Assembly (NCBI RefSeq): GCF_965204125.1
Contig: NZ_OZ241968.1
Location: forward strand, 1,048,840-1,112,839
Source of the DNA: Candidatus Poriferisodalis sp.
GTDB taxonomy: Bacteria > Actinomycetota > Acidimicrobiia > Acidimicrobiales > Poriferisodalaceae
Direction of reading: 5' to 3'
Length of the DNA: 64,000 nt
Below the pieces are notes generated by a model, which did not search any database, was not told the origin of the DNA, and worked only from the letters and a program-made list of their open reading frames with translations. Shown here piece by piece: positions 56,419 to 62,590 of this stretch; position 1 is the first letter of the stretch, and each line of letters opens with the position of its first letter. The translations under genes were made by a program, and so were the position numbers.

Positions 56419-59226
56419 TTGACTACCTACTCGAAGCGGCGAGGCAGGCGTTCCCTCGCTGCGATCCTGGCGGCGATGCTCATTGCATCGGTGCTCGCCG
56501 TGGTCGCCGGCTCACCGGCGCACGCGGCCAACACGGCCGGCGAAGTACTCGTCGACCATGACAACGACGCGAAGACTCCGAAGGTGCGCCAGTTCGCCGG
56601 CGACACCCGCTATGAGACTGCTCTGGCACTCGCGAAGGACTTTGCTGAGAACAACGGCAGCATCGGCGGAGTTCCCGTCGCTTTCGTCGCGTCGGGTGAG
56701 TCGCTGGTCGACGCCGTGACTGTCTCAGCTCTTGCAGGCGACCTGAACGCACCGGTGCTGCTCACCCCTGGCGGGGAACTGCACCGAGGCGTCGGCACAT
56801 TCCTCGAGGACTACGGCATTGGAACGATCCATGTGCTCGGCGGCACCGCCGCTGTCTCCGATGCGGTTGTCACCGCCATCGAGGGCCTGGTCCACGAGCC
56901 GACCGTGACGCGCATCGCTGGCGACGACCGGTATGCGACTGCTGCTGCGATCGCTTCGGCTCTGAATGGTTCTCGGTCGTGGTGCGATTCCGACAATGAG
57001 GCTGCGGTGCTGGTCAATGGTGGCAGCACGTCGCTGGCCGGTGCGACAGTCATCGGGCCGGTTGCGAACCGTCTCGCGGTGCCAGTGTTGCTTACCGCCG
57101 CTGACGAACTGCCTGACGCGACCCGCGACTGGATCGACGAGAACAGCATCGAGCATGTTGTGATTGTCGGCTCGACCGCCGACGTGTCCGCGGGCATCGA
57201 GAAGATGCTGGCGGCTGACGGTGTCGATGTCGTTGAGCGCATCGCTGGCGACAACGCCGGTGAGTTGTCGGTGAACGTCGCCAAGACCGTCACTGGCGAT
57301 TGCGCTGACGATCTGGCGCCGGTTGCGTTTGATCGGGCTGCGTTGGTGAACGGCTGGGGACGCGATGTCGCCCCTGACGCCATCACCGCTGCGCCGGTTC
57401 TGTCGGACGGCAATCTCGTGCCGATCCTGCTGGTCGGTGACACGCTGCCCGCATCGGTGCGTGATTACCTCGCCGCGACGCCGTCGCTGCGTAATGGCAA
57501 CAAGGTGCATTATCAGCTGCTCGCTATCGGCGGCACCGCTGCGGTGTCGGAGGCTGTGATGGCAGCGGCGATTGATGCTGCTGCTTCGGCTGATGCGCTC
57601 ACTGTGTCGATTACCAACAACGTTGATATGCCGACGCATGATGACTTCGGAAAGCCGCCCGTTGTCGATGCGACAAGCTTCACGCTGCGGTTCAACGACC
57701 GTGTCAACAGCACCGGCCTGCAAGCCAAGCTCAGTGACATTGTCGAGATCAACGGCGCTCCAGCTGTCTTCACCGTTGCTGACGCCGATACTGACGGCAC
57801 TGTGGAAGCCACAGAGTCGAGTTATCGCTGCGATTCCGCGATCGTGCGCATCACCGGTGTGCCGGCTCTCAAAGCTGGCGATGTCATCTCGGTCGCCGGT
57901 TCGACGCTGACGGTTGGTGCTGGCGATGACCAGCGCAATGTCGTGTCGACTTCGGTGACGGTGCCCGCGAACCCAGTCGACAAGATTGGCCCGAAGATCA
58001 CCATCGTCGGTGTTGAGGACCAGAACAGCGGCGACGTTGGCACCGTCTGGGTCACGGTTGCTTCCGACGATCTCGGCACGGGCACCGACACAGGGTTGAC
58101 GATCGACAACGCCGCGACCACCAATATCGCCAACGATGGTGAAGTGCGTGCAACCCGTGGCGGCAAGTCGCTCGTGCTCGCAGCCATCACTGATGTGTCG
58201 TTGGCAGCAGACGGCACGGCACGCTTCGAGTTGACGCTCGGCACTCAGACTGACACCACCCTCGTCGCTGAGTGGAAGGCCGGGGACCAGATCACGTTCA
58301 TGAGAGGCGCGCTTGTCGACGCTGAAGGCAACGACAGCCCACGTGCACATGGCAGGGTTGCCGCAGCCAAAGTTTCCCCGAAGCCGACAGCGATCCGCGT
58401 TAGCGACGAGAACCACACCAACCAAGCAACTGCAACGGTTCCGGTCGCTATCGCAGGAACAGGCGGAGTGGCGGACATCACGCTGACCGCTAAGAAGGAC
58501 GGCGCAGCGGCAGGTGTGCGCGGCAACGGCTGGACATTCCGGCTGCGCAACGCCAGCACCGTGCCCGCTGGTGACGCCGACATCGCTGTGTCAGTCGATA
58601 CCAAGGGCCGACGTGTAGTCGCGACAGTCCGTCGTGGCGCACCGACCTACGGGGATCTCAAAACGGCGCTCGACGGTCACAGGGCATTCGCAGCGCTGTT
58701 CGACGTTGCTATCGCCAAGACGGCCGACAATGCGGCAGCCGGCACCTGCGGGGCTCCCAAGAGCACCACGAAGCTCACTCTCACGGGAGACTCGCCACCG
58801 GCTGGTCTGGACACTCCCGTTGCCTTCGCTGAGGGCCGTACCACTATGGCTGTGGAAGTCATCTTCAACGGCTACCTCCAGACGGTGACCGACAACGCGC
58901 TGCGTGACGACGTGTTCGCGGACGCTGTCGCAGAGCGCGGCGTCGATCTGGCCAACCTGGCGACCGATAGCAGTGTGACACAGGTGTTCGTGGCACCATC
59001 TGACAGGGTCCGTTACAACATCGTCGCCACTGCGGGCGATGCCGGTCTGCTGTTGCAGCCCGGGCCCGGCAAGGACCGTGTGGTTGTCGCTGCTGGAGAT
59101 GTCGCCACCGGCTACGCCGACGACGGTCTCACCGGCACCGACGACACCGATGGTGACGAGACCACCAACGCCAAGAACGATGGTCTGTGGATGCACCGCA
59201 GCAGCTCTGTCAAGGCTCCCGCCTAG
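56419..59226 (+). CDS. Large CWB2-anchored surface protein, putative S-layer-type paralog S5 (subfamily with S2)
   Basis: TTG 56419 (LTTYSKRRGRRSLAAILAAMLIASVLAVVAGSPAHAANT). CWB2 motifs GDTRYETALALAKDF, AGDDRYATAAAIASAL and AGDNAGELSVNVAKTV. The first ~75 nt are identical to S1. The track ORF start at 56056 overlaps the antitoxin gene and is rejected. Confidence 0.85.
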   Translation: MTTYSKRRGRRSLAAILAAMLIASVLAVVAGSPAHAANTAGEVLVDHDNDAKTPKVRQFAGDTRYETALALAKDFAENNGSIGGVPVAFVASGESLVDAVTVSALAGDLNAPVLLTPGGELHRGVGTFLEDYGIGTIHVLGGTAAVSDAVVTAIEGLVHEPTVTRIAGDDRYATAAAIASALNGSRSWCDSDNEAAVLVNGGSTSLAGATVIGPVANRLAVPVLLTAADELPDATRDWIDENSIEHVVIVGSTADVSAGIEKMLAADGVDVVERIAGDNAGELSVNVAKTVTGDCADDLAPVAFDRAALVNGWGRDVAPDAITAAPVLSDGNLVPILLVGDTLPASVRDYLAATPSLRNGNKVHYQLLAIGGTAAVSEAVMAAAIDAAASADALTVSITNNVDMPTHDDFGKPPVVDATSFTLRFNDRVNSTGLQAKLSDIVEINGAPAVFTVADADTDGTVEATESSYRCDSAIVRITGVPALKAGDVISVAGSTLTVGAGDDQRNVVSTSVTVPANPVDKIGPKITIVGVEDQNSGDVGTVWVTVASDDLGTGTDTGLTIDNAATTNIANDGEVRATRGGKSLVLAAITDVSLAADGTARFELTLGTQTDTTLVAEWKAGDQITFMRGALVDAEGNDSPRAHGRVAAAKVSPKPTAIRVSDENHTNQATATVPVAIAGTGGVADITLTAKKDGAAAGVRGNGWTFRLRNASTVPAGDADIAVSVDTKGRRVVATVRRGAPTYGDLKTALDGHRAFAALFDVAIAKTADNAAAGTCGAPKSTTKLTLTGDSPPAGLDTPVAFAEGRTTMAVEVIFNGYLQTVTDNALRDDVFADAVAERGVDLANLATDSSVTQVFVAPSDRVRYNIVATAGDAGLLLQPGPGKDRVVVAAGDVATGYADDGLTGTDDTDGDETTNAKNDGLWMHRSSSVKAPA

Positions 59227-59349
59227 ACCGGTTGTCACATAGCTGAGGGCCTGAGGCCCCCGTCCGATGCAGGCATCACATTGCGTCCGGGCGGGGGCCT
59301 CTCCCTTGGCCAACACCACTTAGACCCGAGTCCCTCTTCGGGAGGGAAC

Positions 59350-59377
59350 GGACCCCCGACCACTAGGTCGGGGGTCC
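59350..59377 (+). terminator. Hairpin terminator downstream of S5 (not of the conserved T type)
   Basis: ggacccccgacc-acta-ggtcgggggtcc (12-bp stem) followed by ttcccgtttcc. A second small hairpin, tccctc-ttcg-ggaggga, lies at 59331-59347. Confidence 0.75.
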
Positions 59378-59435
59378 TTCCCGTTTCCGGGCTGGTTGAA
59401 CCTGCCCACGCGGGCGGCTGCGAACCGTGCGCCCG

Positions 59436-59620
59436 CTGCATGCAGCGCACCCGCGTACGCCACTAATTCGGTGCAGGTTCCTGTGCTGGTCGGCTTATGG
59501 TGCGTTCAGCCTCGCTGCCGGCTCATGCGGCAGTCGATTCCTAACCACGAGAGCGCTCTTCAGCGCCGCAAGGCTCAGCGAGGCCCGGTATCCGCCACGA
59601 ACGAATCGACCGCCGCCATG
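59436..59620 (+). repeat. About 185-bp conserved non-coding element, copy 1 (upstream of the ParA-like gene)
   Basis: Blocks shared with 61151..61335: ctgcatgcagc, taattcggtgcaggttcctg, ggctcatgcggc, cagcgccgca, gaggcccg and cgaccgccgc-atgacc. Confidence 0.75.
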
Positions 59621-60496
59621 ACCGCAGCAACACCCCCAAGAACTGAACCGAGCGCGAGAGTCGCGGTCTCCGTGATCAACATGAAGGGCGGCGTCGGCAA
59701 GACGACGATCGCAACGCTGCTCTGTCGGCACCTTGCGCGAACCCACAAGGTCCTAGCGATCGACTTGGACCCTCAGGCGAACATGTCCCAGGCGCTCATG
59801 GGTGAGGCTGGTTACCGGCGGTTCATGGATGACGAGTCGCCGTCGGTGGTTGAGGTGTTCAAGGGATATCAGCCTCCGCGCAGCGCGGCCTCGCCGACCC
59901 CGCTGGACCCGGCCGATGTAGCACGGACAATTCCGGGCCGCGGCGAGAAACTGCGCATCATTCCTTCTCGCTTCGATTTCTCCGACAACCTGTGTGAGGC
60001 GACGAGAACGGACGATCAGGCCCTAGCGCGCTTCATCGCAGATGGATTCGATGACATCGACATTGTCTTGATCGACTGTGCTCCAACGGAGTCGGTTCTC
60101 ACGCGGGCTGCCTATCACGCCTCGCGGTATGTGCTAGTTCCCGTTCGCCCCGAGTACTTCGCCACCATCGGATTCCCGCTACTGCACAGATCGTTGGAGG
60201 GGTTTAGGAAGCAGAACCCCGGTCACGAGCTCGATGTGCTCGGCATCGTGATCAACGATGCCGGGTACAAGGGCGGAAATGATGGTGGACCCGAAAAGGC
60301 ACAAGCCATGACCGACATCAGGGGCGAAGCCGCAAAGCACAGCTGGCGGATCTTCTCCAAGCAGCTCCCGTACTCCCGTGGGTTCCCAAAGATGATGCGA
60401 GGAAATTACAGCCGGCTCGGTAACGCCAGAAGGTCGTTCTACGCTCTTGAACGGGAACTGCGCCGCACGTTGTCTGAGGAGGGATACCTGCTGTGA
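59618..60496 (+). CDS. ParA/MinD-like deviant Walker ATPase
   Basis: VAVSVINMKGGVGKTTIATLLCRHLARTHKVLAIDLDPQANMSQAL and VLIDCAPTES. ATG 59618; the ORF is open from 59396, but that part overlaps the conserved non-coding element. Confidence 0.8.
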   Translation: MTAATPPRTEPSARVAVSVINMKGGVGKTTIATLLCRHLARTHKVLAIDLDPQANMSQALMGEAGYRRFMDDESPSVVEVFKGYQPPRSAASPTPLDPADVARTIPGRGEKLRIIPSRFDFSDNLCEATRTDDQALARFIADGFDDIDIVLIDCAPTESVLTRAAYHASRYVLVPVRPEYFATIGFPLLHRSLEGFRKQNPGHELDVLGIVINDAGYKGGNDGGPEKAQAMTDIRGEAAKHSWRIFSKQLPYSRGFPKMMRGNYSRLGNARRSFYALERELRRTLSEEGYLL

Positions 60497-60990
60497 CGGG
60501 AGACCGACTCGTTGCCTCGCTGCGAGAGCTCGTGCGAGAACACGGGCTCGAGCAGGTGAGCCGATCGCTTCACGAGATTGGCGGGCTCGACGGCCAGGCC
60601 CAGGACGCCGCGCCTAGTTCCGGCAGATCAGCACAGCGTGCTGTCGGTCCGAGAGTCAAGCGGAAGCGTGCAGCCACCGCCCTAGAGCGCGTCGAGAAGA
60701 TGGATCTTCCGAGCGAGACTGCCGACGATGTCGTGCAGCTCGCAAAGCGGTTCGACGAGAAATCCTTCATGCCGACCTTCGGCGACATCGCTCACTTCTG
60801 CAGTGTCTATGACATCGAGGTGCCGGCGTCGAGGTCCCGTGCCTCCGCGATAGCACGTGTCTTCAGCACCATCGCGGCCATGAGCGCCGAGGACATCCGG
60901 ATACTGGTCGACTACGGCGCGTTCTCCGGCCCGGCGCGTCTCGGCCCGATATCTGACGCAATCGCCCGCCGCAGCCGAACGCAAGCGTAA
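60493..60990 (+). CDS. Hypothetical protein coupled to the ParA-like gene
   Basis: GTG start overlapping the ParA-like stop (60493-60496). No recognised motif and no ParB-like HTH seen. Confidence 0.5.
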   Translation: MTGDRLVASLRELVREHGLEQVSRSLHEIGGLDGQAQDAAPSSGRSAQRAVGPRVKRKRAATALERVEKMDLPSETADDVVQLAKRFDEKSFMPTFGDIAHFCSVYDIEVPASRSRASAIARVFSTIAAMSAEDIRILVDYGAFSGPARLGPISDAIARRSRTQA

Positions 60991-61150
60991 GAACCCACTG
61001 CTGCGCTCCGCGACAGCGACCTCACCGTCATGGCGGCTCTCACGGTTGAGGCAACGGACAAGGCCCGCATAGGCACCTCCAAGCAAGCACGAACTGCGCT
61101 CAGGCGAGCGTCGACGTCGGCAGCGGTGTTCCGTGTGCGGCGGCACCGGA

Positions 61151-61335
61151 CTGCATGCAGCAGACTCGTCGATGCCATTAATTCGGTGCAGGTTCCTGAG
61201 CCTTTCGGGCTACGGTGTGACTGCCTCGTTGCCCGGCTCATGCGGCGACCTTCCTGGAACCAGATGTGCGCTGTCAGCGCCGCAGAGCCGAAGGAGGCCC
61301 GATGCCCGCACCCGTCGAGACGACCGCCGCGATGA
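61151..61335 (+). repeat. About 185-bp conserved non-coding element, copy 2 (upstream of 61302..61739)
   Basis: See copy 1. Direct orientation, 1.7 kb apart, bracketing the ParA-like two-gene module. Confidence 0.75.
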
Positions 61336-61739
61336 CCGAACCGGCCCCACAGCACACGCCCGCTGTCGGCAGCGAGGCGGCGCGGCAGGGCGTGTCGCCG
61401 AATGTGGTGATGGGCGTGTTCGGCGGGCTGCTGACCACGCTGCTGGGAGCGCTGATCGGTTTGATGATGTGGCAGTTCAGCTCGCTGGGCGGCCGCATCG
61501 ACGCTCAAGGCGCGCGCATCGACAGCCTCAGTACCGAGCTGCGCGCTGAGCTGCGCGCCGAGATCGGCGGCCTGCGGACCGAGCTGCGGAACGAGCTGCG
61601 CGCCGAGATCGGCGGCCTGCGGGCTGAGATGCAGGCGGGCTTCCGGGAGATCAACGCGATTCTGCTGGACCACACCGACCGTCTCGCTCGCCTCGAGGCC
61701 GCCGCAGGGCTGCCCCGCAGCGCCGACGCCCCCCAATAG
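61302..61739 (+). CDS. Small membrane protein with one N-proximal TM segment and a repetitive coiled-coil
   Basis: ATG 61302 preceded by gAAGGAGGcccg. VVMGVFGGLLTTLLGALIGLMMW followed by LRAELRAEIGGLRTELRNELRAEIGGLRAEMQ (45-bp repeat at about 61537-61630). Confidence 0.65.
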   Translation: MPAPVETTAAMTEPAPQHTPAVGSEAARQGVSPNVVMGVFGGLLTTLLGALIGLMMWQFSSLGGRIDAQGARIDSLSTELRAELRAEIGGLRTELRNELRAEIGGLRAEMQAGFREINAILLDHTDRLARLEAAAGLPRSADAPQ

Positions 61740-61931
61740 GGACCGGCTGCACGAACAGCGCGCTGAGGCTGAGCCCCGTGATGCTGCGCAGCAGATTGCC
61801 GAAGTTGGTTCGTTGCGGTTCGCTCGACGTCGAGGCGGCTGGTCGGGCTATGAGCCAGTCCGCTGGCTAGATTGTCTGTCTAGATTGTAGTGGCGTCGAT
61901 GCAGGGGGTCATTGTGGCGGATGCAGCGCAG

Positions 61932-62180
61932 ATGTGGCAATTGCAGGACGCCAAGAACCGGTTCAGCGCCGTTGTCGAGGCGGCGCTGGGCGGCGAGCCG
62001 CAGCATGTGACGCGGCGAGGCCAGCCCGTGGTCGTGGTGGTGGCGGTGGATGAGTTCGAGCGGCTCTGCCGGCTCGACAGTGCTGCCGCGCCCACGTTCG
62101 GCCGCCTGCTGGCCGCCATGCCGACCGACGGCGGCGAATTCGAGCGGCTCGATGTGTCACCCAGGGACATCGAGCTGTGA
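61932..62180 (+). CDS. Phd/YefM-type antitoxin
   Basis: MWQLQDAKNRFSAVVEAALGGEPQHVTRRGQPVVVVVAVDEFERL. The ORF is open from GTG 61890. The direct repeat ctagattgt at 61867-61875 and 61880-61888 lies upstream. Confidence 0.75.
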   Translation: MWQLQDAKNRFSAVVEAALGGEPQHVTRRGQPVVVVVAVDEFERLCRLDSAAAPTFGRLLAAMPTDGGEFERLDVSPRDIEL

Positions 62181-62590
62181 GCTTGCTGCTCGACACCGAT
62201 GTTCTCTCGGCGCTGCGCCGTCGCCACCGGAACCCGTCGGTCGTCGGGTGGCTGGAGAGCCAACGCACAGCCGACCTGCATCTCAGCGTGGTGACCATCG
62301 GCGAGATCGAGCGCGGCATTGCCCGCCAGCGCGATCGCGACCCCGCATTCGCCCTGGAACTCGCCGACTGGCTCGACAAGGTGCTCACCTGGTACGGCGA
62401 CCGCGTGCTCCCCGTCGATACCGGCACGGCTCGGCGGTGGGGCCGCCTCGTTGAGCTGCTCGGGCATGCGAATGCCGACCTCTTGATCGCCGCCACGGCA
62501 CTCGAGCACGGGCTCACCGTGGTCACCCGCAACACCCGCGACTTCGAGCCAACCGGAGCAAAGGTGCTCAACCCCTTCGGTGACGCATAG
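62177..62590 (+). CDS. vapC: PIN-domain toxin VapC (FitB-like)
   Basis: MSLLLDTDVLSALRRRHRNPSVVGWL...LLIAATALEHGLTVVTRNTRDFEPTGAKVLNPF. GTG start overlapping the antitoxin stop. Confidence 0.85.
   Translation: MSLLLDTDVLSALRRRHRNPSVVGWLESQRTADLHLSVVTIGEIERGIARQRDRDPAFALELADWLDKVLTWYGDRVLPVDTGTARRWGRLVELLGHANADLLIAATALEHGLTVVTRNTRDFEPTGAKVLNPFGDA

Follow-up and report, generated by a model that had tools for sequence, protein, structure and literature searches.

A repeated 5' unit with a putative Shine-Dalgarno-occluding leader RNA ahead of coiled-coil and ParA-like genes in the sponge-associated genus Candidatus Poriferisodalis

Why do two unrelated neighbouring genes begin with the same stretch of DNA? 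The question is raised by a 64,000-nucleotide stretch (hereafter the window) of Candidatus Poriferisodalis sp. (positions 1,048,840 to 1,112,839 of contig NZ_OZ241968.1, assembly GCF_965204125.1), in which two direct repeats lie ahead of a ParA-like gene and of a gene for a transmembrane (TM)/coiled-coil protein, respectively. An initial annotation had described these repeats as a conserved non-coding element bracketing a ParA-like two-gene module, and had offered three readings of them: a structured 5' untranslated region (UTR) or small RNA, a shared promoter or operator region, or att-like repeats left by insertion of the ParA-like cassette. Our analysis indicates that each repeat is best explained as a copy of a modular 5' unit composed of a promoter, a leader of about 80 nt, a Shine-Dalgarno sequence (SD) and the 12-17 initial codons of the gene that follows.

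Both repeats were present as described, with all the sequence blocks previously listed. Copy 1 (59436-59625) and copy 2 (61151-61340) are homologous over approximately 190 nt, are about 75% identical and lie in direct orientation 1715 bp apart. Two ungapped segments account for most of the similarity (59436-59502 versus 61151-61217, 78% identity over 67 nt; 59560-59624 versus 61274-61338, 74% identity over 65 nt), and the gapped alignment has a mean column identity of 79%, few single-base indels and a longest exact block of 20 nt. The indels that were said to break any common reading frame were confirmed as single-base indels within the first ~150 nt. When copy 1 was used as a query against the whole 3.45-Mb genome, copy 2 was recovered at E 2.7e-22, indicating that the repeat is not due to chance, and a third copy was found on the minus strand 9 kb past the window end (G000:C1:1121997-1122126; also delimited as 1121965-1122101). 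By whole-assembly search, the source genome (G000) has three copies in total. The genes assigned to the two window copies were also correctly recognised: the product encoded downstream of copy 1 matches Pfam AAA_31 (2.2e-27) and CbiA (1.1e-17), and copy 2 precedes an unrelated TM/coiled-coil gene with a strong SD (GGAGG). "Bracketing", on the other hand, misdescribes the arrangement, which consists of two adjacent transcription units with paralogous 5' ends.

The initial annotation had named an absence of homologues elsewhere as a reason to abandon its proposals, but homologues were found across the genus and in sponge metagenomes. BLAST detected the element in 21 of the other 31 genus genomes and in none of five further genera of the same family. 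A covariance model (R1), built from 28 copies, gave 57 matches in 24 of the 32 genus genomes (G000 included), with one to five per genome, and produced no convincing match, and a single weak one (E 0.003), in 149 genomes sampled from the rest of the order, representing 119 other genera. Further copies of nearly the same sequence occur in sponge and marine metagenome contigs, and others lie upstream of family proteins that are only 41-48% identical to the TM/coiled-coil protein of the window. More distant relatives of this protein, in other lineages, are preceded by short, unrelated 5' regions. A pattern scan of the whole genome collection gave chance matches, the pattern being too loose for GC-rich genomes; none of the 80 loci among those listed was a real match by the covariance model. 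As the initial annotation had suspected, the element matches no catalogued RNA family: the Rfam 15 covariance-model scan of 58500-62500 at E<=10 returned no match over 59436-59625 or 61151-61340. The genus comprises sponge-associated Acidimicrobiia, all downstream family proteins are labelled 'hypothetical protein', and a literature search on the genus name found no papers. Judged from the genomes searched, the unit appears to be restricted to this one uncultured sponge-symbiont genus.

Not all copies are complete or single. Two partial copies, L063:2394-2484 in genome G003 and L083:1501-1652 in G014, keep the SD and the N-terminal codons and are without the leader hairpins; one of the two lies ~900 nt downstream of a complete copy. 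A further copy (L073) is truncated or gene-less. In genomes G011 (L108:2001-3174) and G015 (L071:795-1638), the whole unit, i.e. leader and TM/coiled-coil gene, is tandemly duplicated at a distance of 0.7-1 kb.

Alignment of the copies placed the parts of the unit in the order upstream region, -10 box, leader and conserved codons from 5' to 3'. In most copies the upstream region contains an A-rich stretch and a -35-like hexamer (TTGnnn/TGCAGG), which is mostly separated from the -10 box by 18-19 nt, and about 11 of the 57 copies, both window copies included, additionally have a palindrome with a GCATGC core ~75 nt upstream. The -10 box reads TAnnnT, with T5, A6 and T10 invariant in alignment A4 and the three middle bases variable. 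TAnnnT is the pattern of actinobacterial sigma-A -10 boxes, and from these features we infer a sigma-A-type promoter in the unit. A promoter scan with the E. coli consensus gave no match, as is to be expected of a high-GC actinobacterium. The earlier proposal of a shared promoter or operator region is thus upheld in part, namely for the conserved -10 box.

The leader begins 7-8 nt after the -10 box, extends over 79-81 nt up to the start codon (77-81 nt in the comparison of reading frames) and has the consensus GCCUCGYUGCCCGGCUnAUGCGGCGRYC-N7-AACCAC-N3-GUGCGCU-loop-AGCGCCGCGA-N4-CAGCGAGGCCCG-AUG. The leader is non-coding: copies differ in length by single bases, every one of the three frames contains stops, and the column entropy is without a 3-base phase. 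The 12-17 codons that follow encode the conserved peptide M-[SPT]-x-[PST]-x-E-[TS]-[TI]-A-A-M-T-x-P-A-E (core M-x-x-P-V-E-T-T-A-A-M-T), show entropies of 0.92/0.62/1.05 by codon position and are in frame with the downstream open reading frame (ORF) in nearly all copies. An out-of-frame upstream ORF or a programmed frameshift was ruled out, as the conserved codons are in frame with the TM/coiled-coil gene. Hence, the element as first described is non-coding in its leader but coding in its last ~36-50 nt, with which the downstream genes begin (codons 1 to 12-17), and the conservation of translated frames as protein, earlier named as a further argument against a non-coding element, applies to those last nucleotides only and not to the leader. 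In the window, the parts of the two copies are as follows.

59436-59445, plus strand: palindrome CTGCATGCAG before copy 1, read from the sequence; it may be an operator site or mark the 5' border of the cassette.
59472-59501, plus strand: promoter-like region of copy 1, as predicted, with TGCAGG at 59472-59477, an 18-nt spacer and the -10 box TATGGT at 59496-59501.
59509-59587, plus strand: leader of copy 1, with the 5' strand of helix P1 at 59509-59513 facing GAGGC at 59580-59584, and the SD GAGG at 59580-59583.
59514-59519 with 59529-59534 (hairpin H2) and 59553-59557 with 59562-59566 (hairpin H3), plus strand: leader hairpins of copy 1.
59588-59638, plus strand: conserved N-terminal codons of copy 1, with GTA at the family start (59588-59590) and a conserved second ATG at 59618-59620.
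61151-61160, plus strand: palindrome CTGCATGCAG before copy 2, read from the sequence; a perfect 10-bp palindrome.
61187-61216, plus strand: promoter-like region of copy 2, as predicted, with TGCAGG at 61187-61192, an 18-nt spacer and the -10 box TACGGT at 61211-61216.
61223-61301, plus strand: leader of copy 2, with the 5' strand of P1 at 61223-61227 facing GAGGC at 61294-61298, and the SD GGAGG at 61293-61297.
61228-61233 with 61244-61249 (H2) and 61268-61272 with 61276-61280 (H3), plus strand: leader hairpins of copy 2.

Conservation of the leader does not follow from recent copying. Over 465 pairs of family members, the leaders have a mean pairwise identity of 0.76, whereas third codon positions in the conserved C-terminal block of the genes they precede average 0.54. 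This difference indicates that the leader is held by selection. In the leader tree the three copies of G000 fall into three different clades, and a single clade for the three copies of genome G013 was rejected (p 2.6e-16), thus arguing against within-genome homogenisation or concerted evolution. No sharp recombination core was found in the element. The leader of the ParA-like gene in G013 resembles the other G013 leaders more than it resembles the ParA leader of G000; an exchange of leaders between paralogues was considered and not retained, as a single clade of ParA leaders is compatible with the approximately unbiased (AU) test (p 0.24).

The sequence at the predicted 5' end of the leader, GCCUCGCUG, is the exact reverse complement of the SD-containing CAGCGAGGC. 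This pairing, named P1 and tested as its 5-pair core GCCUC:GAGGC, is found in 92.5% of cells across 59 distinct sequences, with one clade carrying a matched insertion that adds C to the 5' strand and G to the 3' strand. Hairpin H2 (GYUGCC/GGCRRY) is paired in 100% of cells of the 59 distinct sequences, encloses a near-invariant 10-nt loop and is the one helix in which covariation is strong. Its pair 25:47 (CG:30/UA:28/UG:1) has the highest mutual information among all column pairs (0.99 bits, 100% Watson-Crick), and the neighbouring pair (GC:33/GU:26) and the third pair (UG:51/UA:5/CG:2) vary as well, as does the closing pair of H3 (GCGCU/AGCGC; UA:40/AU:8). Altogether the proposed structure pairs 96% of cells, compared to 26-55% when the partners are slid. 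Minimum-free-energy folds contained the helix between anti-SD and SD in all eight copies tested, and the ensemble probability of a paired SD was 0.91, compared to 0.75 with the upstream part shuffled. According to these predicted folds the SD would be occluded, as in an expression platform. The four bases GYUG can pair either in H2 or in a longer form of P1, so that the two compete, and both forms fit all sequences; a conformational switch may therefore be possible in the modelled structure. Some lineages show strong pairing (down to -29 kcal/mol) between GCGGCGGUCG in the leader and CGACCGCCGC in codons 7-10, but duplexes within the same sequence were overall not better than those across sequences (permutation p 0.16), giving no general co-evolution of the two segments. 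In the tandem pair of G011 the 5' strand reads GGGAUG instead of GCCUCG, so that most of the anti-SD pairing is lost. Of the suggested structured 5' UTR or small RNA, what stands is a ~80-nt leader with conserved helices.

We favour, with a confidence slightly better than even, the interpretation that a new leader RNA acts here in cis by masking the SD and is carried together with its promoter and first codons as a module. Transcription would start about 7 nt after the -10 box, and the 5' GCCUC of the mRNA (extendable to GCCUCGYUG) would pair with the SD region GAGGC (extendable to CAGCGAGGC), with P1 closing a three-way junction around H2 and H3. Such a fold would hide the ribosome-binding site, so that translation, and probably mRNA stability, would depend on a factor that opens or locks it, which might be a ligand, a protein or an RNA; the competition between H2 and long P1 for GYUG would allow the switch. 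A more specific proposal, which we put forward only tentatively, is that of a hitherto undescribed RNA switch, responsive to a ligand or a protein and found only in sponge-symbiotic Acidimicrobiia, that would co-regulate the length-variable coiled-coil family, the ParA-like ATPase and a small protein as one regulon, with the N-terminal codons (M..PVETTAAMT) taking part through GCGGCGGUCG:CGACCGCCGC. The downstream genes (TM/coiled-coil, ParA-like ATPase and small ORF) give no clue to a ligand.

Several observations weigh against an SD-occluding leader RNA. The C-G/U-A switch in H2 corresponds to only two events on the tree, and covariation as a whole amounts to one to two evolutionary events, most paired columns being uninformative because they never vary. 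Folding energies are ordinary for the GC content (z -1.2 to +0.3), short and long P1 both cover the SD so that no 'on' conformation is evident, and the transcription start is a predicted one. Furthermore, copy 1 has GTA where the family and the orthologue in G013 (L054) have an ATG served by the SD; its start codon is lost and the unit may therefore be decaying. Finally, the co-varying inverted repeats could be a dimeric DNA operator.

If they were, GYTGCC-N10-GGCRRY, GCGCT-N4-AGCGC and the CTGCATGCAG palindrome would bind a dimeric transcription factor repressing or activating the whole regulon. H2 and H3 are indeed inverted repeats in the DNA, symmetric co-variation of half-sites would mimic base-pair covariation, and some copies are preceded, at ~75 nt, by a perfect 10-bp palindrome; most copies, however, lack it. 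We nevertheless find an operator rather improbable, as the wobble pairs of H2 are strand-specific (U-G in 51 of 59 and G-U in 26 of 59) and would be asymmetric half-sites on DNA, the 10-nt spacer that forms the H2 loop hardly varies, contrary to what is usual for spacers of operators, and the 9-nt complementarity between 5' end and SD has no rationale at the DNA level. Alternatively, the leader might have no RNA function at all, the unit being a plain duplicated front end (shared promoter, ribosome-binding site and N-terminus) of a fast-evolving, recombining family, copied or exchanged by homologous recombination in a manner reminiscent of variable surface-protein families, whose 5' ends are conserved. 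Neutral hitch-hiking of this kind leaves unexplained both the 80 non-coding bases that surpass synonymous sites in conservation and the complete pairing of H2 through double changes; besides, the copies within a genome are old and divergent without concerted evolution (p 2.6e-16). It does agree with a unit that heads different gene bodies, with the truncated or gene-less copies, with the clustering of copies within 1-25 kb in many genomes and their position among differently arranged surface-protein genes in G000 and G013, and with the closer likeness of the G013 ParA leader to other leaders of that genome, although the leader swap suggested by the latter is not significant (AU p 0.24). On balance we regard a plain front end as unlikely, while still granting it some weight.

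The third of the earlier readings, in which the ParA-like two-gene cassette inserted and left the repeats behind as att-like sites, is very improbable and was largely refuted, as was its variant of a target duplication. It is true that the ParA-like gene and a 165-aa ORF lie between two directly oriented copies spaced 1715 bp apart, and that the cassette behaves as a discrete unit, its homology between G000 and G013 covering exactly window positions 59435-61019. In contrast to the near-identical core of att sites, however, the copies are only ~75% identical, contain indels and share no exact block longer than 20 nt. The orthologous ParA cassette in G013 has only its own leader copy, so the repeats do not travel with it as a pair; the next copy there belongs to a TM/coiled-coil unit 12 kb away and is inverted. 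Moreover, the element occurs 60 times and stands mostly before genes unrelated to the cassette, including ~40 TM/coiled-coil genes, none of the contigs from four DNA runs joins 59621 to 61150 across the cassette, and no integrase adjoins the cassette in G000. The flanks of the window locus were not recovered in the fetched loci of relatives. From the single copy in G013, the 75% identity and the missing joints we conclude that the apparent bracketing reflects two units that lie next to each other and begin with the same kind of front end, and that the ParA-like cassette is not an inserted mobile element.

The gene bodies downstream of the unit include two types of TM/coiled-coil gene, the ParA-like gene and a small gene. 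Members of the TM/coiled-coil family are headed by about 40 of the 57 copies and share a plan of conserved N-terminal peptide, low-complexity linker, basic residues, one TM helix, variable coiled-coil repeats and a conserved C-terminus (...LRAEMQAGFREINA(I/T)LLDHTDRLARLE). The family is variable in length (139-232 aa) because its members differ mainly in the number of coiled-coil repeats. In the window, a 45-bp in-frame tandem repeat (61518-61607, 80% identical) lies inside the TM/coiled-coil gene, whose 145-aa product matched no Pfam family. The genes headed by the two window copies are the following.

59618-60496, plus strand: ParA-like P-loop ATPase gene; its start is uncertain and the frame is open from 59396.
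60493-60990, plus strand: 165-aa ORF that overlaps the stop codon of the ParA-like gene.
61302-61739, plus strand: TM/coiled-coil gene (145 aa) that starts MPAPVETTAAMT and encodes a TM helix, 45-bp in-frame repeats and the C-terminus AEMQAGFREINAILLDHTDRLARLE.

The ParA-like protein reached 69 bits with the NCBIfam model ParA_partition, which is below the cut-off of 180. Since 35 nt separate the SD from the next ATG (59618), both the start and the translation level of this gene are uncertain, and the gene may be decaying in G000. A ParA-like gene with the unit is present in G000 and G013, and decayed versions occur in G023 and G026. The 165-aa ORF had no family assignment in Pfam or NCBIfam and is 83% identical in G013 and G026. 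In G026 (L081:1413-1541) the ParA-like gene is internally deleted to a 43-aa fusion of its N- and C-terminal parts, with the leader and the 165-aa ORF kept. Short-sided joints 59722>60734 were seen in metagenome runs X3 and X4, both marine; they probably stem from relatives with an internally deleted ParA gene like that of G026.

At the third copy of G000, as in its orthologue in G013, the family start codon is lost (ATA). This copy (L003:1217-1605, minus strand; G000:C1:1121713-1122101) is followed by a 28-codon ORF with its own SD (GGGAGGA), the stop of which overlaps the start (ATGAGTGA) of a 61-aa gene (MSEIKFTAEFEGKTYDLG...). The 61-aa gene matched no family; its conservation extends to G013 and G030.

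In both G000 and G013 the copies are found among surface-protein genes, in an arrangement that differs between the two species; the G013 island is an array of CWB2 surface-protein genes arranged unlike those of G000. A motif scan for CWB2 as a fixed partner gave few matches in flanks of 1.5-2 kb, which are short for such a test. In the window, G+C-rich inverted repeats at 59253-59301 (14 nt, 93% complementary) and 59345-59382 (17 nt, 88% complementary) directly follow a gene for a 1056-aa CWB2 surface protein and look like tandem terminators separating it from the copy 1 unit. Directly downstream of the TM/coiled-coil gene (61890-62590) are genes for a Phd/YefM antitoxin (3e-13) and a PIN-domain toxin (3e-17), the stop codon of one overlapping the start of the other. 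In G013 (L111; G013:C10:199353-201231) an ORF that is integrase-like by a look at its N-terminus only converges on the 3' end of a leader-bearing TM/coiled-coil gene.

If the leader is a real RNA switch, it would mark a regulon in an uncultured sponge-symbiont genus and represent a new cis-regulatory RNA family from a lineage hardly sampled by Rfam. It would also link repeat-variable membrane coiled-coil proteins that lie among surface-gene cassettes at two loci, and thus offer a way into the control of the cell envelope. Even on a modest reading, the repeat is explained and the lead of the ParA cassette as a mobile element is removed.

How does the element compare to known systems? Repeated elements with an SD have been described in Cluster K mycobacteriophages, in which SAS, a 13-bp motif (GGGATAGGAGCCC), is present in 10-20 copies per phage genome inside operons, and ESAS combines SAS with 17-bp inverted repeats; their function is unknown, a role in translation initiation having been proposed (PMC3203893). 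Like SAS and ESAS, the present element is a repeat in one orientation that includes an SD and lies closely upstream of the start codons of genes from different families; with the extended form, ESAS, it also shares inverted repeats. It differs from them in its size of ~190 bp, in having its own promoter, an 80-nt leader and conserved codons, and in occurring in one to five copies per chromosome before mostly one gene family.

RNA thermometers such as ROSE and fourU depend on pairing that is weak or imperfect and comes apart close to physiological temperature. As in these thermometers, the SD of our element would be occluded by pairing within the 5' UTR, but the anti-SD helix is G+C-rich with 5-9 pairs, and the inner loops do not vary in sequence, a feature that suggests binding by a specific partner and not melting. 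Translational riboswitches and other SD-sequestering leaders are cis-acting 5' leaders with a helix that closes over the SD. The element lacks an Rfam match, is found in one genus only, shows covariation of one to two events and precedes genes for hypothetical membrane coiled-coil proteins instead of metabolic or transport genes, all of which sets it apart from translational riboswitches. It resembles them, however, in its ~80-nt cis leader between promoter and start codon, in the predicted closing helix between 5' end and SD, in its likewise predicted multi-helix junction with near-invariant loop and junction bases, and in the competing pairings of long P1 and H2.

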